Source of the DNA: an uncultured Candidatus Saccharibacteria bacterium
GTDB taxonomy: Bacteria > Patescibacteriota > Minisyncoccia > Phycocordibacterales > PALSA-1337
DNA length: 51,122 nucleotides
Assembly: GCA_964349525.1 (NCBI GenBank)
Contig: CAYGGI010000001.1
Span: forward strand, 1-51,122
Reading direction: 5' to 3'
A model generated the notes under the pieces. That model made no database searches and had not been told where the DNA came from. It saw only the letters and a program-made list of their open reading frames with translations. Position 1 is the first letter of the stretch. Every line of letters begins with the position of its first letter. Below are positions 3,674 through 45,296 of this stretch, one piece after another. Both the position numbers and the translations under genes were made by a program.

Positions 3674-3676
3674 ACT

Positions 3677-3991
3677 ATGTATACCATTTCACCCTCACTA
3701 TCAGGAGTACTTTCCGATGATTATCTCTACTTTGAGGGTGTCAGGAGGCCAGAAAGTTTCTTCATGTTACGCGATGGGGGTGAGAAAATCATTGAAACTG
3801 AAGACATCGTCGTTCTCGAGAGGTACTGGAACGACATGTACAACCTCTTCTTGCGCAAGCTCACGCAGTTTGCCGGCAGTAACCCGATTAATGACGAAGA
3901 ATCGCTCAAGCTCCAAGCATTGCTCGAAGAAATGATCAAGGTCAAGAAGCTCATTGAAAATGCCTCAAAGACGGCTATAATGAGGAGGTGA
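3677..3991 (+). CDS. Hypothetical protein (104 aa)
   Basis: The ORF is packed between radC (3-nt gap) and murD (4-nt overlap). No recognisable motif. Confidence 0.55.
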   Translation: MYTISPSLSGVLSDDYLYFEGVRRPESFFMLRDGGEKIIETEDIVVLERYWNDMYNLFLRKLTQFAGSNPINDEESLKLQALLEEMIKVKKLIENASKTAIMRR

Positions 3992-5262: not shown

Positions 5263-5319
5263 AAAAATGAGACTCCGAACGGGGAGGGAGCCTTTTTGAG
5301 AGCGATAGCGGTCCAAAAA

Positions 5320-5354
5320 GGACTCCCGACCGCAAGATGAGGAGTCCATTTTTT
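5320..5354. terminator. Bidirectional intrinsic terminator between convergent murD and the PLP-enzyme gene
   Basis: GGACTCC (5320-5326) pairs with GGAGTCC (5341-5347). The hairpin is flanked by AAAAA upstream and TTTTTT downstream, so a U-run follows it on either strand. Confidence 0.7.
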
Positions 5355-5355
5355 C

Positions 5356-6234: not shown

Positions 6235-6273
6235 GTTGATATATTACACTGTTTCAGTTAGTATTAGAAGTAT

Positions 6274-6438
6274 ATGACATCGAACTGCCCAGAATGCAAG
6301 AACAATATAGACCTTTCACGATATCCCGCTGTTAAGGAGGGAATGGTCATAGAATGCGACCATTGCGGCATGACACTTCTCGTCAAGAAAATTGATGGTG
6401 ATACTGTCTCAACTGAGATTATTGACGAAGGGAAGTAA
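6274..6438 (+). CDS. LysW-like zinc-ribbon small protein (54 aa; not in the ORF track)
   Basis: Hand translation: MTSNCPECKNNIDLSRYPAVKEGMVIECDHCGMTLLVKKIDGDTVSTEIIDEGK. It has CPEC...CDHC knuckles and an acidic tail. An extended -10 TGATATATT sits at 6237-6245, and the stop abuts the convergent mpl stop. Confidence 0.6.
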   Translation: MTSNCPECKNNIDLSRYPAVKEGMVIECDHCGMTLLVKKIDGDTVSTEIIDEGK

Positions 6439-7854
6439 TTAGGCGGACAAGGCTTTAATCGTTTCCTCTATCATCCCTCTAAACCCATGTGATCCGAGGA
6501 AGACGATGACGTCGTCGGCCTCTGTCTGCCTATTTTGCGAAGTTAGAAAAGTGACCAATTTTTCGTCACTTTCTATGTAGTGAGAATTGGTATGGGTCTT
6601 CCCGATGACTTTTGTAAGCTCATCGCCTTCAAGCGGTTGATCGGCTGTACCCGCATTCGCATCGATTTTTAATTTTGAAAGGCGAGGGATGATGACGGTG
6701 TCGGCGTCCCTGAAAGCGTCGTCGTACATACCAATCGTCTCTCGTTGACGTCCTCCGATATTTGGTTCAAAAACCGCGATTATTTTTTTATGATATACCT
6801 CGCGAAGACTCTCAAGTACTGAAGCGGCCTTCTCTGGTGTTGGCGCATGACAGTCAAAAAGAGTTATGCAGTCTTTTGTTTCAAATCTCTTTTCGAGTCG
6901 TCTTTTAATTCCCCTAAATTCTTTTAACGCCTCAATTATTTTTTCTGGAGAAATTCCAATCTCGTTCGCCATAGCAAATACTCCGGTAATGTTTTCGACA
7001 TTGAATCGACCGAGCATGGGGGATTCTACCCCATACTTTTTATCTTTATGAATGATCGAAAAAGATAGACCATCTTTTGTATGAATTACATCTCCATATA
7101 TATAATCGGCGCTTCCGGTTTTTCCATAGGAAACAACTTTTCTATTCCCGAGAACTTTCGCTGTACCTTTGTCATCTGTACATGCCACGATCATCCCGGT
7201 TACAGGCATTTCCGCCACTAACTTTTTGAAGGCTTCGAAGTAAGATTCTTCAGTAGGGTAGACATCAGCATGGTCCCACGACACAGATGTTAGGAGAAGA
7301 TGAGTGGGGTGATAATGAAAGAATTTGGCAATGTTGTCGGTCTGCGAACCTGTATACTCATCACCTTCGAGAATACTCCATTTCCCATCGGCGATTCTTG
7401 CTGCGTTTTTTTGTGAAAGAGAAATACCGCCGAACATGTATGATGGATCGAACCCTGTTTTTTCGAGAATAAAGGAAAGGAGAGTACTCGTCGTCGTTTT
7501 GCCCCAGGTTCCCGCGCAGACGATAGAATTTTCCCGAAGGAAATATTTCTCGAGAATTTCCGGAAATGAATGAATAGGAATATTCTTTTCTTTTGCGAGA
7601 AGCGTTTCCGGATTGACGCTACTTTTGCCACTGCCACCAATCATGACAATGTCAGGCAGACTTTCGAGCATTTTCTCCGGATGCCAGCCAGCGTAAAATT
7701 CGATGCCGGCTTTCTCGAGCTCGGTCGAAACGGGAGGGTAGAAGCCCTTGTCGGAACCGGTGACCTTCCAGCCTTTGTTGTGAAAGGCGATGGCAATAGC
7801 GCTGGTCGCGACGCCGCAGATGCCGATGATATGGAGGTGTTTCTGATCAATCAT
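6439..7854 (-). CDS. mpl: Mur ligase of the Mpl/MurC type (closest by eye to UDP-N-acetylmuramate:L-Ala-D-Glu-mDAP ligase Mpl)
   Basis: IIGICGVATS...VTGSDKGFYPPVSTELEKAGIEF parallels E. coli Mpl ILGICG...VTGSDANVYPPMSTLLEKQGIE. P-loop CAGTWGKTTT, EGDEY and SWDHADVY are present. Confidence 0.75.
   Translation of the reverse strand: MIDQKHLHIIGICGVATSAIAIAFHNKGWKVTGSDKGFYPPVSTELEKAGIEFYAGWHPEKMLESLPDIVMIGGSGKSSVNPETLLAKEKNIPIHSFPEILEKYFLRENSIVCAGTWGKTTTSTLLSFILEKTGFDPSYMFGGISLSQKNAARIADGKWSILEGDEYTGSQTDNIAKFFHYHPTHLLLTSVSWDHADVYPTEESYFEAFKKLVAEMPVTGMIVACTDDKGTAKVLGNRKVVSYGKTGSADYIYGDVIHTKDGLSFSIIHKDKKYGVESPMLGRFNVENITGVFAMANEIGISPEKIIEALKEFRGIKRRLEKRFETKDCITLFDCHAPTPEKAASVLESLREVYHKKIIAVFEPNIGGRQRETIGMYDDAFRDADTVIIPRLSKLKIDANAGTADQPLEGDELTKVIGKTHTNSHYIESDEKLVTFLTSQNRQTEADDVIVFLGSHGFRGMIEETIKALSA
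6547..6573 (-). repeat. Copy 3 (inverted, 25/27 identical) of the palindromic terminator element, embedded in the mpl coding sequence
   Basis: AAAAGTGACCAATTTTTCGTCACTTTC versus the reverse complement of the 102-128 core, AAAAGTGACGAATTTTTCGTCACTTTT. In frame it encodes ESDEKLVTF of Mpl. Confidence 0.7.
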
Positions 7855-9646: not shown

Positions 9647-10774
9647 CTAGTGCAGTGCTAGCCACACGCCAAAGACGACGAAGATAAAGTGAACAATCCA
9701 GAAGCGCATGATGGTCTTTTCCTCGCTCCAGCCGATAAGCTCAAAGTGGTGATGAAGCGGCGCCATGCGGAATATCCTGCGACCGAGGATATAGCGACCA
9801 GCGACCTGGATGACGACGGTTGCGGCTTCGATATAGAAAAGAAAGCCGAGGAAAAATATCGAGCCGATTTCTCCGATAGCCAGAGTGTTGACGGCAAAGA
9901 GTGCGCCGAGCCCGAGCGACCCGACGTCACCCATCATGAAGCGTGCCGGTTTGATATTGAAATAGGTGTAGGCGACGAGAGCGCCGACGGCGGTGGCGTT
10001 CAGTACCGCGATCTCGCTGAAGCCATTGATCCAGCTCAAAAGGGTGAGGGCACTGAATGTGCTGATGAGCATCCCTCCGGCGAGGCCATCCATCCCATCG
10101 GCAATATTGACAGCGTTAGCCGTGAACATCACAATAAAAATAATGATGGGAATGATACCCCAGCCGGCAGGAATATCGTAGCCGAAAGGTAGATAAATGT
10201 AGTGCCATGCAGGACCAAGCTTGCTATAGACCCACCAGGCTGTGATGGATCCGGCAATGAATTGGAGCAAAAGTTTTTCGTGCACATGAACACCTTTTCC
10301 CGGACGCGAGCCGATCCACACTGATGTTCTTTTGAAAATTGTCCACGGCAATGTGATGGCGTACCAGATGCGCATCTTTGTATCTTTGTGGACTTTTATA
10401 AGTTTCAAAATATGCGAAAGTTTACGAGAACGCCGCTCTGCGCCGAAAATATTGAGGAGATCGTCGACTCCTCCGAGAGCTGCCGAGAGGAGCATAACGG
10501 CGAGCGGTACCCAAGTGAAGTTTCTGTACCAGTTGAAGATGAGAGTAATAACTGCGACGGTGACAATGACGAGAAGTCCGCCCATGATCGGCGTCAGATC
10601 TTTGCCTTTGCGCGACTCGATGGCAGCGAGTTCGACTTTTGCTGATTTTACAATATGGAAGCGATTGAGAAGATATATAAGGAAAGGGGACCAGAGGAAA
10701 GCCACAATGCAGGAGAATAGAGCAAAACCAAGGATATATCCGAAATCGGCTGTTCCCTCCAGGATGCTTATCAT
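9647..10774 (-). CDS. mraY: Phospho-N-acetylmuramoyl-pentapeptide transferase
   Basis: NAVNIADGMDGLAGG and MAPLHHHFELIGW motifs, with about 10 hydrophobic helices. Confidence 0.95.
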   Translation of the reverse strand: MISILEGTADFGYILGFALFSCIVAFLWSPFLIYLLNRFHIVKSAKVELAAIESRKGKDLTPIMGGLLVIVTVAVITLIFNWYRNFTWVPLAVMLLSAALGGVDDLLNIFGAERRSRKLSHILKLIKVHKDTKMRIWYAITLPWTIFKRTSVWIGSRPGKGVHVHEKLLLQFIAGSITAWWVYSKLGPAWHYIYLPFGYDIPAGWGIIPIIIFIVMFTANAVNIADGMDGLAGGMLISTFSALTLLSWINGFSEIAVLNATAVGALVAYTYFNIKPARFMMGDVGSLGLGALFAVNTLAIGEIGSIFFLGFLFYIEAATVVIQVAGRYILGRRIFRMAPLHHHFELIGWSEEKTIMRFWIVHFIFVVFGVWLALH

Positions 10775-15643: not shown

Positions 15644-17371
15644 ATGAACGAAGAAAGGATCACATATTTCGCCGAAACCGACGCCCGAAATAAAAAGGTA
15701 AAATTTGGTATCAAGGCCAAGGATCGTACCCGCCATGTCTATGTCATTGGAAAAACTGGTATGGGAAAATCGACCCTGCTAGAGAACATGGCTGTGCAGG
15801 ATATTAAAAATGGGGAAGGTATCGCCTTCATCGACCCGCACGGCAAGACTGCTGATCTCCTCCTCGAATACATTCCACCGGAGCGTATCAAGGATGTCAT
15901 ATATTTCGCGCCCTTCGATACTGACTACCCGATTTCATTTAACGTCCTCGAGAGTGTCGATCCTGACAAGCGCCACCTCGTCGTCTCCGGACTCATGAGC
16001 ACCTTCAAGAAAATCTGGCAGGATGCCTGGTCCGCCCGCATGGAATATATTCTCACGAACACGCTCCTCGCGCTCCTCGAATATCCAGACGCTACGCTTC
16101 TCGGTGTTAACCGTATGTTGTCGGATAAAAAATTCAGAGAAAAAGTCGTAGCAAATGTGAGCGACCCGGCTGTCAAATCTTTTTGGGTTGAAGAATTCGC
16201 CCACTACACGGAGCGCATGGCGGCAGAGGCGGTTCCAGCGATCCAGAACAAGATCGGGCAATTCACTGCGAACGCGCTCATCAGGAACATGATCGGCCAG
16301 GCCAAGTCCTCTTTCAATATCCGTGAAGTCATGGATCAAAAGAAGATCATGATCATCAACCTTTCGAAGGGTCGCATCGGTGAAACAAATGCCAATCTTC
16401 TCGGAGGAATGCTCATTACGAAAATTTTTCTTGCCGCCCTTTCTCGCGCGGATGTGCCCGACCGCGTCTTGAAAGGTCTCCCGAACTTTTACCTGTTCGT
16501 TGACGAGTTCCAGTCGTTTGCCAATGAGTCATTTGCCGATATTCTCTCCGAGTCGCGCAAATACAAGCTCAACCTCACGATGGCGCACCAGTACATAGAA
16601 CAAATGGAAGAAGAGGTGCGCGCAGCGGTCTTCGGCAACGTCGGGACGATGATCGTCTTCCGTGTCGGAGCATATGACGCTGAGATTCTCGAAAAGGAAT
16701 TCGCGCCGCAGTTCACGGCCGAGGATATTGTAAATCTCGGGTTTGCTCAGATATATTTAAAACTTATGATCGATGGTATTGGCTCCGCACCATTTTCCGC
16801 AACAACTCTCGGCCCGATCCCTCAACCAGAAAAATCAAACATGCAGGAAGCTATGACAATGTCCCGAGCGCAGTTTGCTCATACTCGCGCTGAGGTAGAA
16901 AAAGCAATTGCCGAATGGCATGAGCCGGTAGCTCCACCTCCGCCACCGCCGAGACCAAAGCCACAGGTAGCTTCGCAACCGATGACGCAACCTGTTCATG
17001 TTGCACCAGCGCCCGTACTAATGCCAAAACCTCTTCCGAAACCATCTGCACCAGTTGTAACACCCATTCCCGTACCAACTCACAAACCCTTCGCCGCGCC
17101 ATTATCTGTTCCACTTTCAAATCTGGTTCAGAAACCGCAAACAAAAGTGAATTCAAAAGACGCGTCTCCAGAACGGGTCAATGAATTGCGGAATGCTCTC
17201 GCCTCTGTCCTCGGCTCAATGCCGAAAAAGCCTGCCGAAAAACCAGCACCAGCGCCTGCACCTCACTCCCAACCGGTTCCTCCCCAAGCTCCACCAGCAC
17301 CGAAACCTCCGCAAGATTCTACACAAGAAGTCTCCGAAGATGTACTGAAAAGCGTTCTTAAGGTAAAGTAA
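15644..17371 (+). CDS. VirD4/TraD-like (type IV coupling protein-like) P-loop ATPase without N-terminal TM segments, plus a proline-rich disordered tail of about 170 aa
   Basis: Walker A GKTGMGKST, Walker B-like FYLFVDEFQ and MAHQYIEQM. The tail is PVAPPPPPPRPKPQ...PAPAPAPHSQPVPPQAPPAPKPPQ. Confidence 0.7.
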   Translation: MNEERITYFAETDARNKKVKFGIKAKDRTRHVYVIGKTGMGKSTLLENMAVQDIKNGEGIAFIDPHGKTADLLLEYIPPERIKDVIYFAPFDTDYPISFNVLESVDPDKRHLVVSGLMSTFKKIWQDAWSARMEYILTNTLLALLEYPDATLLGVNRMLSDKKFREKVVANVSDPAVKSFWVEEFAHYTERMAAEAVPAIQNKIGQFTANALIRNMIGQAKSSFNIREVMDQKKIMIINLSKGRIGETNANLLGGMLITKIFLAALSRADVPDRVLKGLPNFYLFVDEFQSFANESFADILSESRKYKLNLTMAHQYIEQMEEEVRAAVFGNVGTMIVFRVGAYDAEILEKEFAPQFTAEDIVNLGFAQIYLKLMIDGIGSAPFSATTLGPIPQPEKSNMQEAMTMSRAQFAHTRAEVEKAIAEWHEPVAPPPPPPRPKPQVASQPMTQPVHVAPAPVLMPKPLPKPSAPVVTPIPVPTHKPFAAPLSVPLSNLVQKPQTKVNSKDASPERVNELRNALASVLGSMPKKPAEKPAPAPAPHSQPVPPQAPPAPKPPQDSTQEVSEDVLKSVLKVK

Positions 17372-35679: not shown

Positions 35680-36744
35680 ATGGCGAAATCTCAAACAACA
35701 AAATACGCTTTAGTGACTGGCTCTGCTGGCCTCATCGGTTCAGAGTCGGCACGTTTTTTTGCTTCTCAAGGATATGAGATTGTCGGTATTGATAACGATA
35801 TGAGACAGTATTTCTTTGGTTCTGATGCGAGTACCACATGGAACAATGATCTTTTGAAGAAAGATCTGCAAGGACACTATTCTCATTATAAAGTCGATAT
35901 TAGAGACAATGAGAAAATAGAGGAGATATTTAAGACACATACATTCGACATCATCATTCACACTGCGGCTCAGCCAAGCCACGATTGGGCCGCGAAGGAA
36001 CCCCTAACAGACTTTTCTGTAAATGCTCTCGGAACTCTCATCATGCTTGAAAATTTCAGAAAGTATTCACCTGAAGCAACTTTTATTTTCACTTCTACGA
36101 ATAAAGTCTATGGAGATAGGCCAAATAGCCTGCCACTTGTCGAACTAGAAAAAAGATATGAAATTTATGATGGTCATGAATATGTCAAAGGTATCCCAGA
36201 GACGATGAGTATTGACGATACCAAGCATAGTGTCTTCGGAGCTTCAAAAGTCGCCGCAGATATCATGGTCCAGGAATATGGAAAGTATTTTAATTTGAAT
36301 ACCGGCGTTTTTCGTGGAGGTTGCCTGACAGGCCCTGCGCATAGTGGTACCGAACTCCATGGCTTCCTTGCATACCTTGTGAAGTGTATTGCAACAGGTA
36401 AGAAGTACACGATTTTTGGCTATAAGGGCAAGCAAGTTAGGGATAACATCCACTCCTATGATCTCGTCAATATGTTCTGGCACTACCATGCGGATCCTGG
36501 CCGAGGTGAAGTCTATAATGCCGGCGGAGGAAGACAATCAAACATCTCTATCCTCGAAGCGATCGATAAGATTGAAAAAATCCTCGGTAAAAAAGCTCTC
36601 TACGAATACAAGGATGATAACCGCATTGGTGATCATATATGGTATATTTCAGACACATCAAAGTTTTCTTCACGGTATCCTGAGTGGAAGTATACCTATG
36701 ATATAGACGCCATTCTCGAAGAGATGTGCGCACATTATAGATAA
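35680..36744 (+). CDS. Extended SDR NAD-dependent epimerase/dehydratase (CDP-paratose-2-epimerase-like) with Phe in place of the catalytic Tyr
   Basis: [14 protein letters not shown] and TSTNKVYGD. The expected YxxxK reads [22 protein letters not shown] is also present. Confidence 0.8.
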
Positions 36745-36749
36745 ATCCC

Positions 36750-37823
36750 ATGAACTATAAAACCATACTTATCACAGGAGGTTGTGGATTTGTCGGATCA
36801 AACCTTGCTGAGAAAATTAAAAAAACATATCCAGATGCGCGGGTGATTGCTATGGATAACTTATACAGGAAAGGATCTGAACTTAATGCTCAACGTTTAG
36901 AAAAGATGGGCGTGGAATTTAAAAAAGGGGATGTTAGAAAAAGAGATGATTTCACGTTTGACATAAAAATTGATCTCATCATCGAGTGTGCAGCTGAGCC
37001 CTCAGTCATGGCTGGTTTGAGTGAATCACCTCTGTATGCTGTTGATACAAACCTGAATGGCGCTATTAACTGCCTCGAATTGGCACGGACAAATGATTCC
37101 TCGCTCATCTTTCTTTCGACAAGCCGCGTCTATCCTGTACAAGAGCTCAAGGAAATCGTACTCACAGAATCTAGAAGTCGATTTGAGATAGACAGTCACC
37201 AGACACTGAAAGGAGTATCTGATTTTGGAATCTCAGAAGAATTTTCTCTAGGAAATGTGCGTACATTATACGGCGCGACGAAATTGGCCTCGGAATTTAT
37301 CATCAAAGAATATGCAGAAAATTATCACATACCCTCAGTCATTGACCGTTGCGGGGTGATCACGGGACCATGGCAGTTTGGTAAAGTAGATCAAGGAGTT
37401 TTTTCTTTGTGGGTTGCTCGGCATATATATCGAAGCAAGAAACTCTCGTACATCGGTTTTGGAGGCACAGGTAAGCAGGTCAGGGATTTTATCCATATTG
37501 ATGATCTATTCAATGCAGTCAAATTTCAAATGGAAAATCTTTCAAACTGGAGCGGAGAAGTATTTAATATCGGTGGTGGAAGAGAACAGAGCCTCTCGCT
37601 TTGTGAGTTAACTGAACTATGTCAGAGTCTTTCCGGAGTTAAGCTAGAAATTGATCAGGTAAAAAAAGATAGAGTCGGAGATATACCTCTCTACATCAGC
37701 GATTGTAGAAAATTTCAGAAGATGAGTAATTGGAAGCCCCGCATTGGTCCAAAAGAAGCCATCAAGAGTCTCTTCGATTGGATGAATGAATACAAGGAAT
37801 TGCTGAAACCTATTTTAGAGTAA
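36750..37823 (+). CDS. Extended SDR NAD-dependent epimerase/dehydratase (paralogue, canonical YxxxK)
   Basis: ILITGGCGFVGSNL, LYGATK and GTGKQVRDFIHIDD. Confidence 0.85.
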   Translation: MNYKTILITGGCGFVGSNLAEKIKKTYPDARVIAMDNLYRKGSELNAQRLEKMGVEFKKGDVRKRDDFTFDIKIDLIIECAAEPSVMAGLSESPLYAVDTNLNGAINCLELARTNDSSLIFLSTSRVYPVQELKEIVLTESRSRFEIDSHQTLKGVSDFGISEEFSLGNVRTLYGATKLASEFIIKEYAENYHIPSVIDRCGVITGPWQFGKVDQGVFSLWVARHIYRSKKLSYIGFGGTGKQVRDFIHIDDLFNAVKFQMENLSNWSGEVFNIGGGREQSLSLCELTELCQSLSGVKLEIDQVKKDRVGDIPLYISDCRKFQKMSNWKPRIGPKEAIKSLFDWMNEYKELLKPILE

Positions 37824-38789
37824 GATACTTGGGAAATTTTCTTGAGGATGTCCCCAATTTGGGCTGTATTCTTTATAAGGTTTTTTAGTCCGCAGCATTT
37901 CCTCCGCATCTTTCCTGAATTTACTATAAGAAGCAAGATACCTCACTCCTCCATGGTGATGGTAAAGATGAAAAAGAGGGAAGTTCAGGATCTTTTGTTG
38001 AGCACCTTTGCAGTAAAGCATATACATGATGTAGCCATCCATAATGCCGCTACCCACTGTTTCTTCATCATAGCCACGGACAGTGTTCCAGAGGTTTCGG
38101 TGCATGAGCAGAAAGTCCCCAGCAGCATTTTCGTGTAGTGTAGAGTTGTTCGTATTTATTTTTTTAAAAGAGTTGAAAAGGGGGCATTGCTTTAAACTTT
38201 TTCTATTTCTTGTGTGAATAAACATTCTAAACCATTCCTTATACGAGACGTACACCGTCTGGTTATTATAGAGGATCTTTATGACATTTTCCTGAGCCAG
38301 TTCTAGGATTTCGGCTGGAGTAAGATCAGAAGATACGAAATTTATCGAAGTATCCTTCCTATTGATTCTATAAAAAGTATTTTGCCCCAGTTTTTTTGAT
38401 GAAAAAAAATCAAAGAGCTTATCGCTGAAGAGCACATCCGGGTTTGTGGCTAGGATGAACTGACCTTTTGCCCTGCGTATGCCAATATTTTTTGCAATGA
38501 ATTCGCACACAGTAACTTCCTCATTTCTCGGAAGGGTTTTGTGAAATTCATTAGGCACGACGATGAATCTCACGGAAAAATAGGGATTGGATATGACGGT
38601 AAGCTCTTGATGGAGATTTTTCTTGTTGGGAATTGGGTTGTATTCTACAAAGACAAGTTCGCAAGTGAGTCTTGTTCTCTCTGCTTGGTAAGCAAGTATT
38701 TTTATAAAGGCATTGATACGGTTTACCCAATTTCCACCGTAATCGTCATTCCTCGCTGTCGCAACAAAAGAGATATATGGGTAAGTCAT
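37815..38789 (-). CDS. Putative GT-A fold glycosyltransferase (family unresolved)
   Basis: FVATARNDDYGGN and ILATNPDVLF. AAGDFLLMHRNLWNTVRGYDE resembles the GT2/GT7-type C-terminal segment. It overlaps the convergent SDR gene by 9 nt. Confidence 0.45.
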   Translation of the reverse strand: MTYPYISFVATARNDDYGGNWVNRINAFIKILAYQAERTRLTCELVFVEYNPIPNKKNLHQELTVISNPYFSVRFIVVPNEFHKTLPRNEEVTVCEFIAKNIGIRRAKGQFILATNPDVLFSDKLFDFFSSKKLGQNTFYRINRKDTSINFVSSDLTPAEILELAQENVIKILYNNQTVYVSYKEWFRMFIHTRNRKSLKQCPLFNSFKKINTNNSTLHENAAGDFLLMHRNLWNTVRGYDEETVGSGIMDGYIMYMLYCKGAQQKILNFPLFHLYHHHGGVRYLASYSKFRKDAEEMLRTKKPYKEYSPNWGHPQENFPSILL

Positions 38790-39759: not shown

Positions 39760-40521
39760 ATGAAGCATCTTCGAAGGAAAATCCTCCACATGGCAGCTGG
39801 AACAGGCGAGGGACATATACCGAGCGGTCTTTCTATTTTGGATATACTCTGGGTTCTCTATGACCAGGTTCTCGATATTACTCCGAAAAATATTCACGGT
39901 TTGAACAGGGATCGATTTATCTTGAGCAAGGGTCATGGTTCACTAGGGTTATATGTAGTCTTAGCTGAGAAAGGCTTTATCAAACCTGCGACTTTGAATT
40001 CCTTTGTAAAATTTAACAGCAATCTTGGTGGACATCCAGACCGCACTAAGATCTCTGGAGTCGAGGCTTCGACGGGTTCCTTGGGTCATGGCTTGCCTAT
40101 GGCAGTGGGGCTCGCCCTTGGGATGAAGATACTGAAGCAACCGCATCGGGTATATGCTGTCATCGGAGATGGGGAATGTAATGAGGGAACGATCTGGGAA
40201 TCTTTAAAACTAGCGTCGCATCATAAACTTTCAAATTTTTACTGCATAGTTGACCACAACCATTCGGGAGATCGAGCCCTGACTCTCGGTGATTTGCAAA
40301 AAAAGTTTGAATCATTCGGCTGGGAGACTGTCTCGATCGATGGTCATGATCAGAAAAAAATATACAAAGCTCTGACAAAAAAGAGCAAAGGTCATCCGAT
40401 GGCCATTATCGCTGAAACTATCAAAGGTTATGGAGTGAAAAGCATGGAGAATAATCATGCATGGCATCACAAATGCCCCACTCCTCAAGAACTAAAAGCT
40501 CTTCTCGAAGAAGTAGCTTAA
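39760..40521 (+). CDS. Split transketolase, N-terminal (ThDP pyrophosphate-binding) subunit
   Basis: GHIPSGLSILDIL, SKGHGSLGLY, GSLGHGLPMAVG and VIGDGECNEGTIWES. Confidence 0.9.
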   Translation: MKHLRRKILHMAAGTGEGHIPSGLSILDILWVLYDQVLDITPKNIHGLNRDRFILSKGHGSLGLYVVLAEKGFIKPATLNSFVKFNSNLGGHPDRTKISGVEASTGSLGHGLPMAVGLALGMKILKQPHRVYAVIGDGECNEGTIWESLKLASHHKLSNFYCIVDHNHSGDRALTLGDLQKKFESFGWETVSIDGHDQKKIYKALTKKSKGHPMAIIAETIKGYGVKSMENNHAWHHKCPTPQELKALLEEVA

Positions 40522-40536
40522 ATAATTATTTTTTCT

Positions 40537-41415
40537 ATGCGCAAGCAATTTGTTAAAACAGTAGAAGATATTTTGGAAAAAGACAAGAAGCTGGTCCTGC
40601 TTTTGGGCGATATCGGAGTCTTCGGTTTTCGCAATTCTTTTACGAAATATCCCGATCGAGTTTATAATATTGGAATCCTCGAACAGTCAACCATCGGTCT
40701 GGCCGCTGGACTTGCTATGCATGATTTTGTCCCTGTAGTTCATACCATCGCGCCGTTTATCGTCGAGAGATCTCTTGAACAGATCAAAGATGATTTCGGT
40801 TACCAGCGTCTCGGTGGAAACTTCGTCAGTGTCGGAGCGTCCTATGACTATGCTGCGCTTGGGTGTACACATCATTGCCCTGGCGATGTGGGAATTCTAA
40901 AGAATGTTCCCGAGATTGAAATCGTGCTTCCTGGAACACCCACTGAGTTCGACGGTTTATTTAAGCAATCATATAACAATGGCCATCCGACCTATTTCCG
41001 TTTGAGTGAAAAGAGTAATATTGAAAGCAATAAGGTAAAATTTGGCAAGGCAAATGTTATCAAAAAAGGGAAGCACGCCACTGTCATTACTGTGGGTCCT
41101 ATGCTCGATAAAGTGAAAGAAGCTTGCAAGGATATGGATGTAACAATCCTCTATTATACGACTCTTACACCCTTTGATCGAGAGACTCTTCGGAAAAATA
41201 TGAGTGGGGATAAGATCATTATCTGCGAGCCTTACTACAGCGGAGCTCTGGACTTCGATGTCTTGGAGACATTCATCGGTAAAAAGATACAAATATTCCA
41301 CATCGGAGTTCCTCGAGAATTTCTACGGAATTATGGCACTACAGCGGACCACGATGTTTACCTAAAGTTGACACCGAAGGATATTAAGGGCAAGATAAAT
41401 AAAATTCTCAAATAA
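40537..41415 (+). CDS. Split transketolase, C-terminal (pyrimidine-binding) subunit
   Basis: NIGILEQSTIGLAAGLAM and HTIAPFIVERSLEQI. The size (292 aa) is typical of the TktB-like half. Confidence 0.9.
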   Translation: MRKQFVKTVEDILEKDKKLVLLLGDIGVFGFRNSFTKYPDRVYNIGILEQSTIGLAAGLAMHDFVPVVHTIAPFIVERSLEQIKDDFGYQRLGGNFVSVGASYDYAALGCTHHCPGDVGILKNVPEIEIVLPGTPTEFDGLFKQSYNNGHPTYFRLSEKSNIESNKVKFGKANVIKKGKHATVITVGPMLDKVKEACKDMDVTILYYTTLTPFDRETLRKNMSGDKIIICEPYYSGALDFDVLETFIGKKIQIFHIGVPREFLRNYGTTADHDVYLKLTPKDIKGKINKILK

Positions 41416-41416
41416 T

Positions 41417-42238
41417 ATGAAAAAGTCTAAATTAAAAAAAGGTGAACTGGTTGGACGAACAGCATTTATTACTGGTGGTAGCAAAGGAATAGGGCTAGCT
41501 ATCGCTCTAGCTATGGCAAAAGAAGGGGCTTCCATTGCGATTTGTGGAAGATCAAAGATAGATCTCGACAATGCTCTTAAATCTCTTGAAAAAACAGGAG
41601 CAGTTTGCCGTTCTTATGTAGCAGATGCATCTGACAAAAAGGCCGTTGAAAGAACACTCATGAATATAAAAAAAGATTTCAAGGGACTTGATATTCTCGT
41701 AAATAATATCGGAGGGGTAAAGCAATTTGCCGATTTTGAAGGGTTAACCGACGAGGATTGGCAAGAAGTCTTTGATATGAATATTATGAGCATGGTGCGC
41801 TTTACGAGAGTAGCCTTGCCTCTGCTCAAAAAATCGCCTCATGGACGGGTCATAAATATTGCGAGTGTTTCAGGGAAAAGACCAGGAAATTTCAATCCGC
41901 ATTATGGATCTATGAAAGCCGCCATGATCCACCTCAATAAATACCTTTCCAACCAGTGGGGAAAATACGGCATTCTCGTCAACGCTATTTCACCGCATAC
42001 GGTAAGGGGGGGTGTCTGGGACAGGGATGTTTCTGATAAGGCAGAAAAGGATGGATTGACACAGAAGCAAGCTGAGGAAAAAATGATCGAGCAAGTGGCA
42101 AGTAAGACAGTTATAAATAGTGTAGCCGATCTCGATGATGTGACAAATATCGCTGTTTATCTGGCTTCAGATAAGGGTAAATTTATAACAGGACAGTGCC
42201 TGACCATCGACGGAGGAGCAGTCAACTCGATTTTTTAA
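41417..42238 (+). CDS. Classical SDR oxidoreductase
   Basis: AFITGGSKGIGLAIALAMAKEGA and YGSMKAA (YxxxK). The start lies 1 nt after the transketolase stop. Confidence 0.85.
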   Translation: MKKSKLKKGELVGRTAFITGGSKGIGLAIALAMAKEGASIAICGRSKIDLDNALKSLEKTGAVCRSYVADASDKKAVERTLMNIKKDFKGLDILVNNIGGVKQFADFEGLTDEDWQEVFDMNIMSMVRFTRVALPLLKKSPHGRVINIASVSGKRPGNFNPHYGSMKAAMIHLNKYLSNQWGKYGILVNAISPHTVRGGVWDRDVSDKAEKDGLTQKQAEEKMIEQVASKTVINSVADLDDVTNIAVYLASDKGKFITGQCLTIDGGAVNSIF

Positions 42239-42719
42239 TCTTCTCGATAATTTTTGTCGTAGAGATATTTTCAAATTCTTGAGGACAATTCCGGTCCAAC
42301 ACTAGAAGTTTTACACCGTATTTTTTCGTAAGTTCCTTTCTATATGGTATATCAAAAGCATCTTCGTTTATGGCGTATATTTCAGGTTTGAGATGTTCAA
42401 AGAAGACTCCGATGGTATCGAGAGGATGACCCCCTTGGATCCATGGAGTATTGAGAAAACAGTAGTCAACATGTTTCAAGGAATCGATCATTTTCAACCT
42501 GATATCTTGGTTGAGTATGGGACGATCTTGGCCTTTATTTATCTTTATTTCATCATCTCGCCCAACCATAACGACGAGGATGTCACCAGATTTTTTGCAA
42601 TCCTCAAAGAAAAGAACATGACCAGCGTGAGTCAGATCGAAAGAGCCTGAACAGAAAACTATTTTTTCCCCAGTATGTTTTTTGCGGATAGAGGATAGAT
42701 CGTCAAAAGAAATAATCAT
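42222..42719 (-). CDS. Cytidylyltransferase-like nucleotidyltransferase (TagD / RfaE domain II type)
   Basis: FCSGSFDLTHAGHVLFF (HxGH motif); 165 aa. It overlaps the convergent SDR gene by 17 nt. Confidence 0.8.
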   Translation of the reverse strand: MIISFDDLSSIRKKHTGEKIVFCSGSFDLTHAGHVLFFEDCKKSGDILVVMVGRDDEIKINKGQDRPILNQDIRLKMIDSLKHVDYCFLNTPWIQGGHPLDTIGVFFEHLKPEIYAINEDAFDIPYRKELTKKYGVKLLVLDRNCPQEFENISTTKIIEKIKKSS

Positions 42720-42725
42720 ACTAAG

Positions 42726-42751
42726 AAGCGTAGCATTTTCATGCTACGCTT
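42726..42751 (-). terminator. Strong hairpin between the Nudix and cytidylyltransferase genes (terminator or processing/attenuation site)
   Basis: 11-bp perfect stem AAGCGTAGCAT / ATGCTACGCTT with a 4-nt loop. There is no long U-run on the minus strand, so function is uncertain. Confidence 0.35.
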
Positions 42752-42772
42752 TCAATGAGGAGAATACTTCGG

Positions 42773-43333
42773 TCAAATCTGGACTCGTTCTCGTAGGTGA
42801 GGCAGAGCCAAGAGAGTCAGGACTGCACTCTTGCTGTCAAGCTTGGTGTCTGGGTCGAAAATCATCTCACACCACTCCTCCCACGGGAGAATGGTGACTT
42901 CAATAATCTCGTTTCGGTCGAGTTCTGGTTCTTTTTCCTTGATGCAGTCGAGAGCGAGGTACGCTGTGAAAGTGACCCGCAAGCTTGGCGGATCGATCCA
43001 GCAAGCTTGCTTCAGAAGGATGAGCGTCTTTGGTCTGTAGCCCGTCTCCTCGAGGAGCTCTCGGATTATTGCTTTTTCGGGATCTTCATCCAGCTCTGCA
43101 TGTCCGCCTGGCAGTTCCACGATATAGTCATTAGCCGCAAATCTAAATTGGCGAAGAGTGACTACTTGGTTCTCGAGGGTAAGCGGGAGAATGACAACAG
43201 GACTTCCATGTTTTGATTTGAGGACAAAGAACTCCTCTTTTTCCCCGTTGGGAAGTGTGAAATCCTGGAGGATGACTTGTCGACCGTAGGATTCTAGGAG
43301 CAGATGCTCCTCACCGGCAATTGGTCTGTTCAT
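42773..43333 (-). CDS. Nudix hydrolase
   Basis: Nudix box PGGHAELDEDPEKAIIRELLEETG. ORF trimmed to ATG 43333. Confidence 0.85.
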   Translation of the reverse strand: MNRPIAGEEHLLLESYGRQVILQDFTLPNGEKEEFFVLKSKHGSPVVILPLTLENQVVTLRQFRFAANDYIVELPGGHAELDEDPEKAIIRELLEETGYRPKTLILLKQACWIDPPSLRVTFTAYLALDCIKEKEPELDRNEIIEVTILPWEEWCEMIFDPDTKLDSKSAVLTLLALPHLRERVQI

Positions 43334-43472
43334 AATGATACCTTTCTCAGGTAAACATACATTATTTGTTAGTATTGTCAATCTCAAGTAAATAGTCTAT
43401 AGTGAACCCAGATTGAAAACCGTTTTTTGATCTTTGATTTGAACTTCTGAGAACCCTCTAACTAAGGAATCT

Positions 43473-45296
43473 ATGCAAACCATTTCGGTGCCTCTTACAC
43501 CTGCCGAGATCACCCTTACGGGGAAGATCGGACAGAAGGTGAAAAGACTATTTCCTAAGGGGTGTGAACGAATCCTTTTGATTCACATTCCTCAAGTCGA
43601 CAAGGAGAATTTCGATCTGGCAACGGCCAGAGCCGGAAGATATCCTTGTTTTCCGCCCTATGGGCCTGGACTCCTGTCCCGCAACCTGCGTACTGCTGGT
43701 TATACTACCAAGCTTATCGACCTCAACTACGAGATCCTATTTCATGTTGCTGACAGGATGTTCGACTACAGTCTCTGGGAAAAGGTCTTGGATGAAGTGA
43801 TGGAGAGCTTCCAGCCGAGCTTAGTGGCAGTGAGTTGTATGTTTTCAGCGACCCATGGGTCCATGAAAATGGTGACAGACTATCTCAAGGAGCATTTTCC
43901 ACAGATACCTATTGTTGCTGGGGGGGTTCACCCCTCAAACAATGTACGAGGTGTCTTGCAGGATGTTCCTAGCATCGACATCGTCATTGCCTACGAGGCA
44001 GACAAAGCCTTCACAACCTTCGTGGATTTTGTGAACAACAAAACCACGGCAGATCGTATCACCCAAACTGCGCTTCTCGAAGATGGAGAGTTCTTGTACA
44101 TGGAACGGCGCGCCGTTCCTGCGGAGGACGAGGTCAACTTTTCCCCCGACTACGACCTCCTTCCTATCGGGGACTATGGCAAACGAGGTGAGATCGGTGT
44201 CTATAGCTGGCTTCGAGGCACGCCTCCACGAAGTACCATCCTCGCCAATCGAGGTTGTCGCGCGCGCTGCACCTTCTGTTCAGTGAACAGTTTCAACGGA
44301 AATGGGGTGCGAAGCCGCGATCATAAGTTTGTTGCTGATGAGATGCAGCGCCAAGTCGAGAAATACAAAGTCGAACACTTCATGTGGCTTGATGATGATC
44401 TCTTTCGGCCTGACTGTGTCGACCTCTTCAGTGAGATTACTTCTCGGGGACTCAACGTTACCTGGGATGCGTCGAATGGTGTTATCGCTTCGGCTACAAC
44501 TCCCGCAGTCTTGCGGGCAGCCAGGGATTCTGGATGTATCGGACTTAGCTTCGGCATAGAGTCCGGTGATCCTGAGATCCTACGTTCGGTCAAAAAACCG
44601 AGTACGGTCAAGCATTTCCGGGCTCTCGGCGGAATGCTGAAAGAACACCCGACGATCTTTACGAAAGGATTCCTCATGGTGGGGTTTCCTGACGAGACTA
44701 TCGAAAAGATCTGGAACACGATCAACCTCGCGCTTGAAATGGCTCTCGACTGGTATCCGATCCAAATCCTCATGCCGTTCGGTGGCACGGAGATGGCAAA
44801 GAAACTTATCGAACGAGGTGTTACCGATGAGCACACAGTGCTCTCCTCCAAGATGCAGATCGGTCCTGCTGGCGCCATACGCCTCAAGGAACGCCGAGAA
44901 GATGCAGTAAGTACCTTCAATCCCGATGTTCTCGATCAGTCGAGAGCTGATAGGATACCAGCTCGCGAGGAGTTGCCGGACATTTGGTTCCTAATGGACT
45001 ACATGGTGAACTATCGACGCATCAATGATGAGAGTGACCCTGTCAGACTGAGGATGAAAGCTCTCAACCTACAGAACATTCTCGACCGGATCCCTCGGCA
45101 CGTCGCCCTAGCGTCTCTCTACCTCGGGGTCATCAACCAGAAACTTGGAAACTTCGAAGCTGCCTCAAGCAACTTTGAAGCAACTGAGCGGTATCTGGAA
45201 GAGTCGGCCTTCTGGCGGCTTAGGTTCGAGAAACTCGGCTTGAACGAGTTTCTTGCAAAGCGGCGGAGCAATGAAAGTTCCTTCGCAGTTTTATAA
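43473..45296 (+). CDS. B12-binding-domain radical SAM enzyme (class B-like) with a helical-repeat C-terminal extension
   Basis: CxxxCxxC motif NRGCRARCTFCSV. The N-terminal Rossmann-like domain reads LIHIPQ...VAVSCMFSATHGS...PIVAGGVHPS. The C-terminal 120 aa or so are helical (ALASLYLGVINQKLGNFEAASSNFEATERYLEE). Confidence 0.8.
   Translation: MQTISVPLTPAEITLTGKIGQKVKRLFPKGCERILLIHIPQVDKENFDLATARAGRYPCFPPYGPGLLSRNLRTAGYTTKLIDLNYEILFHVADRMFDYSLWEKVLDEVMESFQPSLVAVSCMFSATHGSMKMVTDYLKEHFPQIPIVAGGVHPSNNVRGVLQDVPSIDIVIAYEADKAFTTFVDFVNNKTTADRITQTALLEDGEFLYMERRAVPAEDEVNFSPDYDLLPIGDYGKRGEIGVYSWLRGTPPRSTILANRGCRARCTFCSVNSFNGNGVRSRDHKFVADEMQRQVEKYKVEHFMWLDDDLFRPDCVDLFSEITSRGLNVTWDASNGVIASATTPAVLRAARDSGCIGLSFGIESGDPEILRSVKKPSTVKHFRALGGMLKEHPTIFTKGFLMVGFPDETIEKIWNTINLALEMALDWYPIQILMPFGGTEMAKKLIERGVTDEHTVLSSKMQIGPAGAIRLKERREDAVSTFNPDVLDQSRADRIPAREELPDIWFLMDYMVNYRRINDESDPVRLRMKALNLQNILDRIPRHVALASLYLGVINQKLGNFEAASSNFEATERYLEESAFWRLRFEKLGLNEFLAKRRSNESSFAVL

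Follow-up and report, generated by a model that had tools for sequence, protein, structure and literature searches.

Organization of the locus

The window, the whole 51,122-nt stretch of DNA analysed here, comes from the 685-kb genome of a candidate-phyla-radiation (CPR) bacterium and includes a surface-glycan locus of ~34 kb that houses a second, remodelled two-piece transketolase. The forward strand carries two extended SDR genes, epi1 (35680–36744, 354 aa; PF01370, 139.5 bits) and the NDP-sugar dehydratase/epimerase-like epi2 (36750–37823, 357 aa; PF01370, 125.1 bits), followed by a glycan-type split transketolase-like enzyme encoded in two genes, the ThDP/Mg-binding subunit (TK-N; 39760–40521, 253 aa; PF00456, 142.9 bits) and the pyrimidine-binding/C-terminal subunit (TK-C; 40537–41415, 292 aa; 71.7 bits for PF02779, 26.3 bits for PF02780), and by a classical SDR ketoreductase (41417–42238, 273 aa; adh_short_C2, 176.8 bits). 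On the reverse strand lie a small HxGH nucleotidyltransferase of the CTP_transf_like type (CT; 42222–42719, 165 aa; PF01467, 58.3 bits), which is HldC/RfaE-II-like, and an ADP-sugar-pyrophosphatase-like Nudix hydrolase (42773–43333; PF00293, 55 bits). A B12-binding radical-SAM gene, class B methylase-like (43473–45296, forward strand, 607 aa; PF02310, 50.7 bits and PF04055, 65.2 bits), is transcribed divergently from the Nudix-CT pair. By ORF coordinates, gaps of 15 nt and 1 nt separate TK-N from TK-C and TK-C from the classical SDR, which converges on the transferase and Nudix genes, exactly the packing that an earlier sequence-only reading had described. The classical SDR and CT overlap by 17 nt. 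The Nudix ORF extends over 42773–43387 from a TTG start; translation from the ATG at 43333 yields a protein of 186 aa, as long as the 68%-identical orthologue in locus L132. Promoter-like and terminator-like matches between 35 and 46.5 kb occurred at shuffle level and were given no weight.

The accessory split transketolase

The window pair is an accessory, non-housekeeping paralogue that belongs to a multi-phylum clade of glycan loci. A canonical split transketolase pair is present on contig C18 of the same genome, the two TK-N sequences sharing 35% identity. In the tree, the housekeeping enzymes are separated from window TK-N, which falls in a multi-phylum clade of 35 rows (SH-aLRT 98); the C18 copy falls in a same-class clade of 16 rows (support 99). 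None of 150 same-class genomes contained a TK-N at ≥50% identity. The sequence-only reading had taken the pair to be non-housekeeping, and both the phylogeny and the presence of the C18 genes bear this out.

The closest solved structure to TK-N was 6YAK, a split transketolase N-subunit (204 bits), with TK-C reaching only 85.7 bits against 6YAJ. Like this Carboxydothermus hydrogenoformans enzyme (6YAK/6YAJ), the window pair is split over two genes and has the ThDP/Mg motifs, the cofactor Glu and the catalytic histidines, but the N-terminus of window TK-C is ~20–35 residues shorter than in the C. hydrogenoformans and housekeeping subunits. In E. coli numbering, TK-N retains H26, H66, H100, D155, N185 and H261, with Ile187 replaced by Ser and the loop following Asn185 shortened, and TK-C retains R358, E411 and H473. 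Three further positions in TK-C, which bind the sugar phosphate or the acceptor, are substituted (H461 to Gly, D469 to Leu and R520 to Glu), likewise in 19–23 of 24 family members, whereas none of them is changed in the housekeeping TK-C from this genome. Judged from these residues, the ThDP/Mg catalytic core is intact and the substrate pocket rebuilt; since Arg358 is kept, a phosphorylated ligand would still be possible.

That the window pair is an ordinary pentose-phosphate transketolase, present in a glycan locus by chance, is hardly credible. It does reach the Pfam transketolase gathering scores with its catalytic His, Glu and Asp residues in place, but it differs from canonical transketolases in the three replaced substrate residues, all of which the C18 enzyme has, in its glycan-locus setting and in a separate phylogeny scrambled across phyla by horizontal transfer, and its type was not found in the 150 same-class genomes.

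The close orthologues of the pair (54–79% identity) have a nucleotide-sugar context. A cassette found in many phyla comprises TK-N, TK-C, an extended SDR (~343 aa), an Fcl-like protein (~306 aa), an MT-like protein and GT10, and in L131 UGDH lies immediately 5' of the pair. More distant pairs are similarly placed: in L118, Gmd (PF16363, 499 bits) lies immediately 5' of a pair 47% and 31% identical to window TK-N and TK-C, and in L039 a 48%/38%-identical pair adjoins a TylC3-like NDP-sugar C-methyltransferase and is followed by a GtrB-like GT2. The slot after TK-C is taken by a classical SDR in the window, L012, L129 and L133, and by an extended SDR (~340 aa) in L008, L130 and L131.

The reductases, nucleotidyltransferase and Nudix hydrolase

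The classical SDR has the TGxxxGxG and YxxxK motifs, and the models and structures nearest to it include glucose 1-dehydrogenase, gluconate 5-dehydrogenase, acetoin/butanediol dehydrogenase, xylitol dehydrogenase and sorbose reductase; its orthologues following TK-C are 70% (L012), 76% (L129) and 68% (L133) identical. In epi1 the catalytic Tyr is replaced by Phe (FGASK), as it also is in a 73%-identical orthologue directly 5' of TK-N in the L133 operon. The corresponding motif of epi2 is intact (YGATK), and this protein scored 136.6 bits against the dTDP-glucose 4,6-dehydratase model, under the model cut-off. For the TK and CT families alike, the most frequent neighbour is an extended SDR.

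CT had been called a TagD/RfaE-II-type cytidylyltransferase. The RfaE-II side of this assignment stands and the TagD side does not: CT scored 82.7 bits against rfaE_dom_II (TIGR02199; cut-off 181.5) and 36.2 bits against TagD, and the top Foldseek PDB match of its AF2 model (pLDDT 90.6) was HldC (5XF2, E=1e-11), so that the heptose-1-phosphate adenylyltransferases HldC and RfaE-II are its nearest relatives by both fold and profile. The Fom1 CyTase domain (5X3D), which has the fold in common, ranked 41. The HxGH and ISTT motifs are present, as is a KG..RP segment identified by eye, and AMP is more likely than CMP as the nucleotide. In the profile search, CT reached no cofactor-enzyme model at cut-off, and its orthologues (52–84% identity), in CPR bacteria and DPANN archaea, all lie in sugar-tailoring loci, which argues against orthology with a cofactor enzyme. 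A PF00483-GHMP kinase fusion is also carried by six CT loci, and CT may therefore not be the primary activating enzyme.

The kinship with the D-glycero-beta-D-manno-heptose-1-phosphate adenylyltransferases (HldC and HldE domain II) raises an alternative in which the transketolase acts before activation: it would build an unusual ketose such as a heptulose or octulose, either free or phosphorylated, which would be isomerised, phosphorylated at C1 and nucleotidylated by CT, as in a heptose-type pathway that has its own enzyme for supplying the carbon skeleton. Loss of phosphate-binding residues would fit unphosphorylated substrates, TK-type genes neighbour GHMP kinase genes in CT loci L143, L149, L169 and L184, SIS_2 (GmhA-like) genes occur in three CT loci, and the fused transketolase of L134 is accompanied by an HAD phosphatase and a cupin. 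CT differs from the adenylyltransferases in falling well under the equivalog cut-off and in its constant Nudix and radical-SAM partners, which are absent from the ADP-heptose pathway. Against the alternative, the host genome lacks a GmhA, kinase or GmhB pathway, with neither GHMP kinase nor PGM present. The kinase-adjacent transketolases, moreover, are mostly of mini E1-like or fused architecture, and those of the window type have Gmd or UGDH on one side and NDP-sugar reductases on the other. We consider this order of events improbable.

The Nudix protein scored 52.5 bits against the NudE model, under its cut-off, and its best solved relatives were ADP-ribose pyrophosphatases, NudF and the ADP-sugar pyrophosphatase NUDT5. 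It had been likened to Gmm/WcaH of the colanic acid locus, which it resembles in lying inside a polysaccharide locus and in plausibly acting on a nucleotide sugar; the likeness does not extend to the protein, which did not match the Gmm model and belongs with NudE, NudF and the ADP-sugar pyrophosphatases. Gmm-like Nudix genes are present in other TK cassettes, such as L017.

Recurrence of the gene set

Linkage was counted in 41 loci, each of at least 8 kb and each carrying a CT orthologue. Extended SDRs were present in 34 of these loci, B12 radical-SAM genes in 28, Nudix genes in 26, TK-superfamily ThDP enzymes in 25, DegT in 19 and GHMP kinase in 15. The Nudix gene directly adjoined CT in 18 loci, and a TK-superfamily gene lay within two genes of CT, likewise in 18. 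The 25 of 41 loci with a TK-superfamily enzyme compare with a chance expectation roughly estimated at a few per cent, taking ±8 kb around CT and one or two TK loci per genome. In many related CT loci, pairs of mini E1_dh and Transket_pyr genes of the AviB/Pau type stand beside CT. L129, L132 and L133, which are metagenome contigs independent of the window, show its architecture again, with radical-SAM orthologues flanking the Nudix-CT pair in L132 (81% identity) and L133 (57%), and L204 unites an extended SDR, radical-SAM, extended SDR, DegT, SDR, TK-N, TK-C and CT in that order as a single operon. The five genes from TK-N to Nudix are thus a real, recurrent module, arranged beyond chance and recurring across CPR bacteria and DPANN archaea. 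This supports the earlier view that the genes function together inside a polysaccharide locus; the membership of the module was drawn too narrowly, as the neighbour counts indicate that the adjacent radical-SAM gene and the extended SDR at 35680 should be included.

The coupling of CT to TK is frequent and not obligatory, given that L012 has TK, SDR and radical-SAM genes without CT or Nudix, and that L138 and L139 have CT without TK inside the 7 kb fetched on each side. Such loci bear on the possibility that the Nudix-CT pair is unrelated to TK-SDR and was merely inserted, serving ADP-ribose, NAD or cofactor metabolism or the salvage of imported nucleotide sugars. The pair is encoded on the strand opposite TK-SDR, it occurs in L139 without a nearby TK, and it behaves as an insertion/deletion unit relative to L012, where the radical-SAM orthologue (65% identity) directly follows the SDR. 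Yet sugar-tailoring loci are the only setting in which CT orthologues were found, no cofactor-enzyme model matches CT at cut-off, TK-superfamily genes accompany it at the frequencies given above, and TK-C and CT share an operon in L204 (1 nt apart) and L213 (8-nt overlap). An unrelated pair is very improbable on this evidence.

Comparison with known pathways

Branching followed by reduction has precedents in YerE/YerF and in Pau11/12 with Pau7 (PMC9306805, PMC4753412). In the systems for yersiniose/erwiniose (YerE/YerF), Pau11/Pau12 with Pau7, and AviB1/AviB2, as in the window, a ThDP enzyme lies beside an NAD(P)H reductase among enzymes that form NDP-keto-sugars. The families differ: YerE is of the decarboxylase/FAD type and AviB and Pau11/12 are of the E1 alpha/beta type, whereas the window enzyme is of the transketolase family, and Pau7 is an aldo-keto reductase in contrast to the classical SDR of the window. 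The conserved donor-binding histidines suggest transfer of a glycolaldehyde (ketol) unit, rather than of an acetyl unit derived from pyruvate.

The fosfomycin pathway comprises the ThDP decarboxylase Fom2, the reductase FomC, the Fom1 CyTase, the class B radical-SAM methylase Fom3 and the hydrolase FomD (PMC8158854), and the same five kinds of function, parallel one for one, are clustered in the window. There, a class B radical-SAM enzyme works on a nucleotide-linked substrate whose phosphoanhydride is then hydrolysed. By analogy, and in line with the earlier suggestion of a route from ketose phosphate through alditol phosphate to CDP-alditol, the TK-like enzyme would make a small ketose phosphate, the SDR would reduce it to an alditol phosphate, CT would add the nucleotide and the radical-SAM enzyme would methylate the NDP-alditol, from which Nudix would remove the nucleotide handle, unless it is left as a glycan-decorating donor. 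The shared fold of CT and the CyTase domain, the retention of Arg358 and the polyol and ketose reductases among the nearest relatives of the SDR are consistent with such a route, which requires no kinase, none having been found in the genome. It also fits Nanoarchaeota loci L138 and L146, which read CT-CT-rSAM-rSAM-SDR-IMPase with no NDP-hexose enzymes or glycosyltransferases in view; the radical-SAM orthologue flanking the tandem CT genes of L138 is 42% identical.

Several observations nevertheless make this route unlikely. The sugar-phosphate site formed by H461, D469 and R520 is replaced, position 520 now being acidic; TK orthologues of 60–79% identity sit in CT-free cassettes with NDP-sugar enzymes immediately 3'; and extended SDR, DegT and RmlC-like NDP-sugar enzymes dominate CT loci. 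CT itself matches rfaE_dom_II and HldC far better than TagD. A genome search found no TagF, LicD or PEP mutase. The absence of PEP mutase means that, in contrast to fosfomycin synthesis, no C–P bond is expected; the ThDP enzyme, reductase and hydrolase also come from different families, and their setting is a glycan locus with many NDP-sugar enzymes.

A proposed sugar-tailoring pathway

The NDP-sugar neighbours and the remodelled pocket best fit the other route put forward in the sequence-only reading, in which ThDP chemistry on a nucleotide keto-sugar is followed by reduction; of that interpretation, the module, the accessory transketolase and this route are retained, and the alditol route, the TagD affinity and the Gmm likeness are not. 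In the pathway that we propose, the HldC-like CT would place a nucleotide on a sugar 1-phosphate, and the extended SDRs would convert the resulting nucleotide sugar, by oxidation or dehydration, into a keto (or aldehydo) intermediate. The TK-like enzyme would then move a two-carbon ketol unit, with a ketose or hydroxypyruvate as donor, onto the carbonyl of this intermediate, yielding a C-branched or chain-extended alpha-hydroxy-ketone; we infer its acceptor, donor and product from context. The NAD(P)H-dependent classical SDR would reduce the new ketone, branching then reducing as in YerE/YerF, and the B12 radical-SAM enzyme would place a methyl group on an unactivated carbon. Nudix may cleave the nucleotide-sugar diphosphate bond for pool control or recycling, or to permit re-activation, and the neighbouring glycosyltransferases would install the product.

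Several points count against this pathway. The assembly has no source of sugar 1-phosphate, searches for GHMP kinase, PGM/PMM and GmhA having been negative, which leaves the substrate of CT without an explanation in the host. Known sugar-branching ThDP enzymes, in addition, fall in other ThDP families. The loose coupling of CT to TK, the kinase fusion carried by six CT loci and the retained Arg358 also count against it.

Weighing these points, we give a probability of roughly 0.45 to the reading that the eight genes, namely the two extended SDRs at 35680–37823 and the six from TK-N to the B12 radical-SAM gene, form a horizontally mobile sugar-tailoring unit that follows the proposed pathway. 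The product of the module is probably a modified, nucleotide-activated sugar.

A transketolase module embedded in a glycan locus

The window is contig C1 of a genome that was assembled as 685,091 bp in 61 contigs and is rated 98.7% complete; the genome's size, together with the Mur ligases encoded at 3988-7854 and best homologues from Paceibacteria, Saccharibacteria, Yanofskybacteria and other groups, identifies it as that of a CPR (Patescibacteria) bacterium. Almost all genes between about 17.4 kb and the end of the window encode sugar-related enzymes, including glycosyltransferases (GT4, GT2, GT11 and a GT-C fusion), methyltransferases, a UDP-glucose/GDP-mannose dehydrogenase-family (UGDH-family) gene, an AsnB-like amidotransferase, extended SDRs and two B12 radical-SAM enzymes. 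A Glycos_transf_4 (MraY/WecA-family) gene about 7 kb to the left of this island (9647-10774, minus strand) is a possible initiating transferase, and the left edge of the island carries a TraG/VirD4-like coupling ATPase (15644-17371, plus strand) that is possibly a trace of mobile DNA. The 324-aa protein encoded at 37815-38789 had no match in Pfam or NCBIfam and gave no hit in the related loci. Scanning for promoters and terminators was uninformative, as match counts were at the level of shuffled sequence. Elsewhere in the genome, contig C44 (174-5828, 5.8 kb) contains two extended SDRs, putative Wzt-/Wzm-like exporter genes, recognised by eye and size only, and, truncated where the contig stops, a third small HxGH transferase; this contig is probably a further piece of the glycan region and may be the source of the export machinery missing from the window.

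The five open reading frames described in the sequence-only reading were recovered with the same coordinates, spacing and domains when ORFs and profiles were checked. The two halves of a split transketolase-like enzyme, TK-N (39760-40521) and TK-C (40537-41415), are followed by a classical SDR (41417-42238), which converges on and overlaps by 17 nt the gene for a 165-aa HxGH transferase, here called CT (42222-42719, minus strand). The ATG at 43333 is the most likely start of the Nudix gene (42773-43333, minus strand) and gives 186 aa, the length of the Nudix orthologue in comparison locus L132. Divergent from the Nudix gene lies a B12 radical-SAM gene (43473-45296, plus strand), whose N-terminal B12-binding domain (PF02310, 50.7 bits) and radical-SAM core (PF04055, 65.2 bits) form the domain combination of class B (cobalamin) methylases; the equivalog models BchE, HpnJ and P-methylase scored 86-102 bits, all below cut-off. 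Between 39000 and 46000, G+C content is 0.41-0.43 over the TK, SDR and transferase genes and 0.48-0.50 over the radical-SAM gene, a step hinting at a mosaic origin of the module. Farther upstream, an extended SDR (35680-36744) has its catalytic Tyr replaced by Phe (S-x-FGASK). Its 73%-identical orthologue in locus L133 (10267-11418), directly upstream of TK-N, retains this replacement, which is therefore a conserved trait rather than an error or the mark of a pseudogene.

The transketolase pair is an accessory enzyme with a rebuilt pocket

A search for a separate housekeeping transketolase revealed that contig C18 carries another split pair (TK-N 1078-1968, TK-C 3226-4227). In a TK-N tree of 101 sequences (quick IQ-TREE run, SH-aLRT support only), the C18 protein fell in a 16-row clade with transketolases of the same class (SH-aLRT 99), and the window TK-N lay outside this housekeeping clade, in a separate 35-row clade (SH-aLRT 98). 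The latter contains members from Patescibacteria, Thermodesulfobacteriota, Verrucomicrobiota, Omnitrophota, Chloroflexota, Pseudomonadota and other phyla, and this make-up indicates horizontal spread of the lineage as resolved in the tree. The same-class TK-N copies are 33-44% identical to that of the window (35% for the C18 copy), and no TK-N with at least 50% identity was found in 150 sampled genomes of the class. The window TK-N is thus neither a sole copy nor a vertically inherited orthologue of the pentose-phosphate transketolases; a housekeeping role was rejected in view of the canonical pair on C18, the separate clade, the replaced residues described below and the absence from the 150 class genomes. 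Membership in the YerE decarboxylase type or the AviB E1 alpha/beta family of ThDP enzymes was likewise rejected, since the best Pfam match was Transketolase_N (142.9 bits), far above E1_dh (29 bits) and TPP_enzyme_C (25 bits).

To examine the active site, the window pair and its family were aligned to E. coli TktA numbering, with Ser385 left unaligned. The glycan-type family keeps His26, His66, His100, Asp155, Asn185, His261, Arg358, Glu411 and His473; the ThDP/Mg motif (GDG...N), the cofactor-activating Glu411 and the donor-binding His26 and His261 are shared by the window protein and 21-25 of the 25 family members. With these catalytic residues retained, the machinery that forms the ThDP-bound ketol is intact. 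The sugar-phosphate/acceptor site has changed: His461 is replaced by Gly in 23 of 24 members, Asp469 by Leu in 19 of 24 and Arg520 by Glu in 19 of 24. The window protein retains Arg358, and the C18 housekeeping protein has every residue named here, including all four of Arg358, His461, Asp469 and Arg520. Judged from these substitutions, the glycan-type enzymes have rebuilt the site in which a normal sugar-phosphate substrate is bound through its phosphate and 2-hydroxyl.

Relatives of the pair lie among nucleotide-sugar genes

Adjacent TK-N and TK-C genes were found in 76 of 80 genome loci, that is, in every locus with both genes, the remaining four stopping at or just past TK-N. In 30 loci, TK-N and TK-C each share 50% identity or more with their window counterparts. 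The dominant cassette among these joins TK-N and TK-C to an extended SDR (about 343 aa), an Fcl-like protein (about 306 aa) and a protein with weak likeness to methyltransferases (about 311 aa). A gene for a GT10 fucosyltransferase-like enzyme is frequently next in line, and the neighbourhood often includes Wzm/Wzt, a Gmd-like SDR, DegT and a Gmm-like Nudix. UGDH-family and Gmd genes also flank the family: L131 (TK 71%/76% identical) has a UGDH-family gene immediately upstream of TK-N, and L118 has a true Gmd (PF16363, 499 bits) directly upstream of a more distant pair (47%/31%). In L039 (48%/38%) a TylC3-like NDP-sugar C-methyltransferase precedes SDR-TK-N-TK-C, followed by a GtrB-like GT2 and YfhO. 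The orthologues are accordingly flanked by genes of the NDP-4-keto-sugar-forming kind (Gmd, UGDH, extended SDRs), with a classical or extended SDR following TK-C.

The window is part of a syntenic series. Here TK-N and TK-C are followed by a variable slot and then, on the opposite strand, by GT2, GT4, AsnB and GT11. The slot holds an extended SDR in L008, L130 and L131 and, in L012, a classical SDR plus a radical-SAM gene, with neither CT nor Nudix. In the window it holds the SDR, opposite-strand CT and Nudix, and the radical-SAM gene, an order that two close relatives of the window, L129 and L132, jointly reproduce. L133 reproduces the module architecture of the window without the GT2/GT4/AsnB/GT11 flank. 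As classical and extended SDRs occupy the same position, the classical SDR fills a nucleotide-sugar reductase slot. Furthermore, TKs of 60-79% identity occur in loci that have no small transferase, which argues that the TK reaction is independent of this transferase and takes place among nucleotide-sugar intermediates.

The recurrence of the module and its members, the accessory status of the TK and its intact ThDP core with a remodelled pocket are direct observations. From gene context and precedent we propose that a nucleotide-linked sugar is branched and then reduced, and we assign the whole mechanism a probability of about 0.45. Extended SDRs would generate a carbonyl on the nucleotide-linked sugar, the TK-like enzyme would add a C2 ketol unit to it and the classical SDR would reduce the resulting alpha-hydroxy-ketone; the B12 radical-SAM enzyme would methylate an unactivated carbon, the HldC-like CT would supply the nucleotide linkage and the Nudix enzyme would cleave it for control, recycling or re-tagging. 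YerE/YerF and Pau11-12/Pau7 provide precedent for a branch-then-reduce sequence (PMC9306805, PMC4753412). The TK could instead act upstream, supplying the carbon skeleton to a heptose-like route, but the altered pocket and the nucleotide-sugar context of its orthologues weaken this alternative, which is judged unlikely.

The small transferase and Nudix enzyme resemble ADP-sugar enzymes

The best profile for CT was rfaE_dom_II (TIGR02199; 82.7 bits, cut-off 181.5), and its AF2 model (pLDDT 90.6) matched Burkholderia HldC best (5XF2, E 1e-11), followed by 3GLV, TagD and CCT; further down the ranking, at 41, comes the Fom1 CyTase domain (5X3D), which has this fold too. Of the two likenesses proposed earlier for this protein, the RfaE-II one therefore held, below the equivalog cut-off, and the TagD one did not: TagD (TIGR01518) scored 36.2 bits against a cut-off of 165.4, and a profile search of the genome returned neither of the CDP-alditol-using transferase types TagF and LicD (PF04464, PF04991). 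CDP-glycerol/CDP-ribitol teichoic chemistry was rejected on the same weak score and missing partner. CT carries HxGH and ISTT motifs. Scores against cofactor-enzyme models were far under their cut-offs (PPAT 20.4 bits, RibF_rel 24.8 bits), and with no such model reached and a glycan rather than housekeeping context, a cofactor nucleotidyltransferase (CoaD, RibL/FMNAT, NMNAT) was rejected; so was a split NadM-Nudix of NAD salvage, given the TagD/RfaE-type GxFDxxHxGH motif and the unmatched NMNAT model.

The Nudix protein has a Nudix box, and its top PDB matches are ADP-ribose/ADP-sugar pyrophosphatases; it scored 52.5 against the NudE model (cut-off 169), and the downstream proline of the Proline-16 ADPRase signature is present in the window protein and not conserved across its cluster. 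The Gmm/WcaH-like role suggested for it found no support, the Gmm model being unmatched. Each likeness stays below equivalog threshold, but both favour an adenine-nucleotide sugar over a CDP-alditol.

In contrast to the pathway in which HldC or HldE domain II operates (GmhA, a kinase and GmhB), the genome has no SIS_2 or GHMP kinase. Neither PF00483 nor PF12804 sugar-1-phosphate nucleotidyltransferases, GHMP kinase, GmhA nor PGM/PMM were found in the 98.7%-complete assembly, and a canonical ADP- or GDP-heptose pathway was rejected for want of GmhA, GHMP kinase and PGM/PMM. Because these families were not found, the three small PF01467 proteins (in the window and on contigs C31 and C44) are the only candidate sugar-activating enzymes found. 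Genes for Mur ligases, an enzyme of the UGDH family and over 12 glycosyltransferases are present in the same assembly. PF00483 is present in 120 of 150 other genomes of the class and in all five of the same order; its absence here may reflect scavenging or assembly gaps. On the less likely nucleotide-handle reading considered below, the Nudix-CT pair might also convert scavenged host nucleotide sugars to the cell's own donors, given that enzymes forming sugar 1-phosphates or standard NDP-sugars were not found in this organism.

CT recurs with Nudix, radical-SAM and ThDP enzymes

CT belongs to a well-defined family (52-84% identity) of CPR bacteria and DPANN archaea (Nanoarchaeota, Pacearchaeota). 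Only one of 300 sampled representative genomes of the phylum has an orthologue above 50% identity; in it, CT lies 2.8 kb from the Gmd-TK-N-TK-C-extended SDR operon of L118. Ten public-assembly contexts and 80 metagenome loci were clustered, and partners were counted in the 41 loci, the window among them, that span 8 kb or more; a few near-duplicates make the number of independent cases somewhat smaller. An extended SDR was present in 34 of these loci (directly adjacent to CT in 20), a B12 radical-SAM gene in 28 (adjacent in 13), a Nudix gene in 26 (adjacent in 18), and a classical SDR in 13 (adjacent in five); DegT aminotransferase (19 loci) and GHMP kinase (15 loci) directly adjoined CT in one locus each. 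The CT/Nudix pair is broadly linked to TK-superfamily ThDP enzymes (25/41 loci, within two genes of CT in 18), and Nudix, radical-SAM and TK genes occurred jointly in 14. At least five architectures of the ThDP partner were seen: window-type split, other splits, mini E1_dh + Transket_pyr pairs, TK-N with a short Pyr, and fused proteins of 611-635 aa. Single operons include extSDR-rSAM-extSDR-DegT-SDR-TKN-TKC-CT in L204 and TKN-TKC-CT in L213. The coupling of CT to TK is frequent, not obligatory, because L012 lacks CT and Nudix, and no TK was present in L138 or L139 over the 7 kb retrieved to the left and right.

All CT orthologues whose surroundings were examined lay in a glycan locus, and three CT-related loci carry SIS_2 and GHMP kinase. 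L213 (377-2419) and five other CT loci encode a fusion of about 680 aa (PF00483 nucleotidyltransferase-CBS domain-GHMP kinase), so these six contain two different nucleotide-activating enzymes. A family of 226-283 aa without Pfam match (L136 7551-8231 and cluster c8, six long loci) adjoins CT in several DPANN/CPR loci; a Nudix-box-like stretch (GGGQ...ERE.NEEF, by eye) suggests that it may be a divergent Nudix. In L138 (1507-8729) and L146, both of Nanoarchaeota, two tandem CT copies precede two radical-SAM genes, one a 42% orthologue of that in the window, an SDR, an inositol-monophosphatase-family gene and a PhyH oxygenase. With no TK or glycosyltransferase in view, this looks like a stripped-down archaeal version of the module.

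Such DPANN CT-CT-rSAM-rSAM-SDR-IMPase loci, free of hexose enzymes, fit a fosfomycin-like form of the route from a ketose phosphate to a CDP-alditol, in which five functions of the module would correspond one-to-one to Fom2, FomC, Fom1-CyTase, Fom3 and FomD (PMC8158854) and no kinase would be required. We regard this version as unlikely, since the TK pocket changes and the nucleotide-sugar context of the TK orthologues count against it. A phosphonate pathway proper was rejected, as PEP mutase was not found in the genome. A similarly small chance attaches to the near-constant triad of CT, Nudix and radical-SAM enzyme being a 'nucleotide-handle' device, a non-phosphonate counterpart of Fom1-CyTase/Fom3/FomD. 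The ThDP enzyme and reductase would then build a sugar or polyol phosphate, to be tagged transiently with AMP or CMP, or switched from one nucleotide tag to another; the radical enzyme would methylate the tagged substrate, and the Nudix enzyme would strip or exchange the tag.

Implications for CPR cell-surface chemistry

To our knowledge, almost nothing is established about cell-surface chemistry in CPR bacteria and DPANN archaea, and we know of no characterised member in such a setting for three of the families found here, the TK-type enzyme with a rebuilt pocket, the HldC-like transferase and the B12 radical-SAM enzyme. Literature searches on transketolase in O-antigen or capsule loci, split transketolase and polysaccharide, and Patescibacteria nucleotide sugars returned no study of the TK family in the literature covered, which likewise gave no paper on the TK clade, the small transferase family or their association. 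Our analysis puts numbers on the association of the transferase family with ThDP enzymes, Nudix genes and B12 radical-SAM genes. It also characterises one of the small enzymes as HldC-like and the other as ADP-sugar-like, places classical and extended SDRs as equivalents in one slot, and draws the parallel to fosfomycin logic. The module genes are small and encode soluble-looking proteins, making direct in vitro testing feasible.

About 34 kb of the 685-kb genome is devoted to cell-surface chemistry, and the 165-aa HldC-like transferase retains about 60% sequence identity from bacteria to archaea. That it is so tightly paired with the Nudix enzyme suggests a hitherto unrecognised step in how nucleotide sugars are handled. 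Addition of a ketol unit to a nucleotide sugar, if the TK-like enzyme performs it, would be a new class of reaction for the transketolase family and also a new route to branched or extended sugars.
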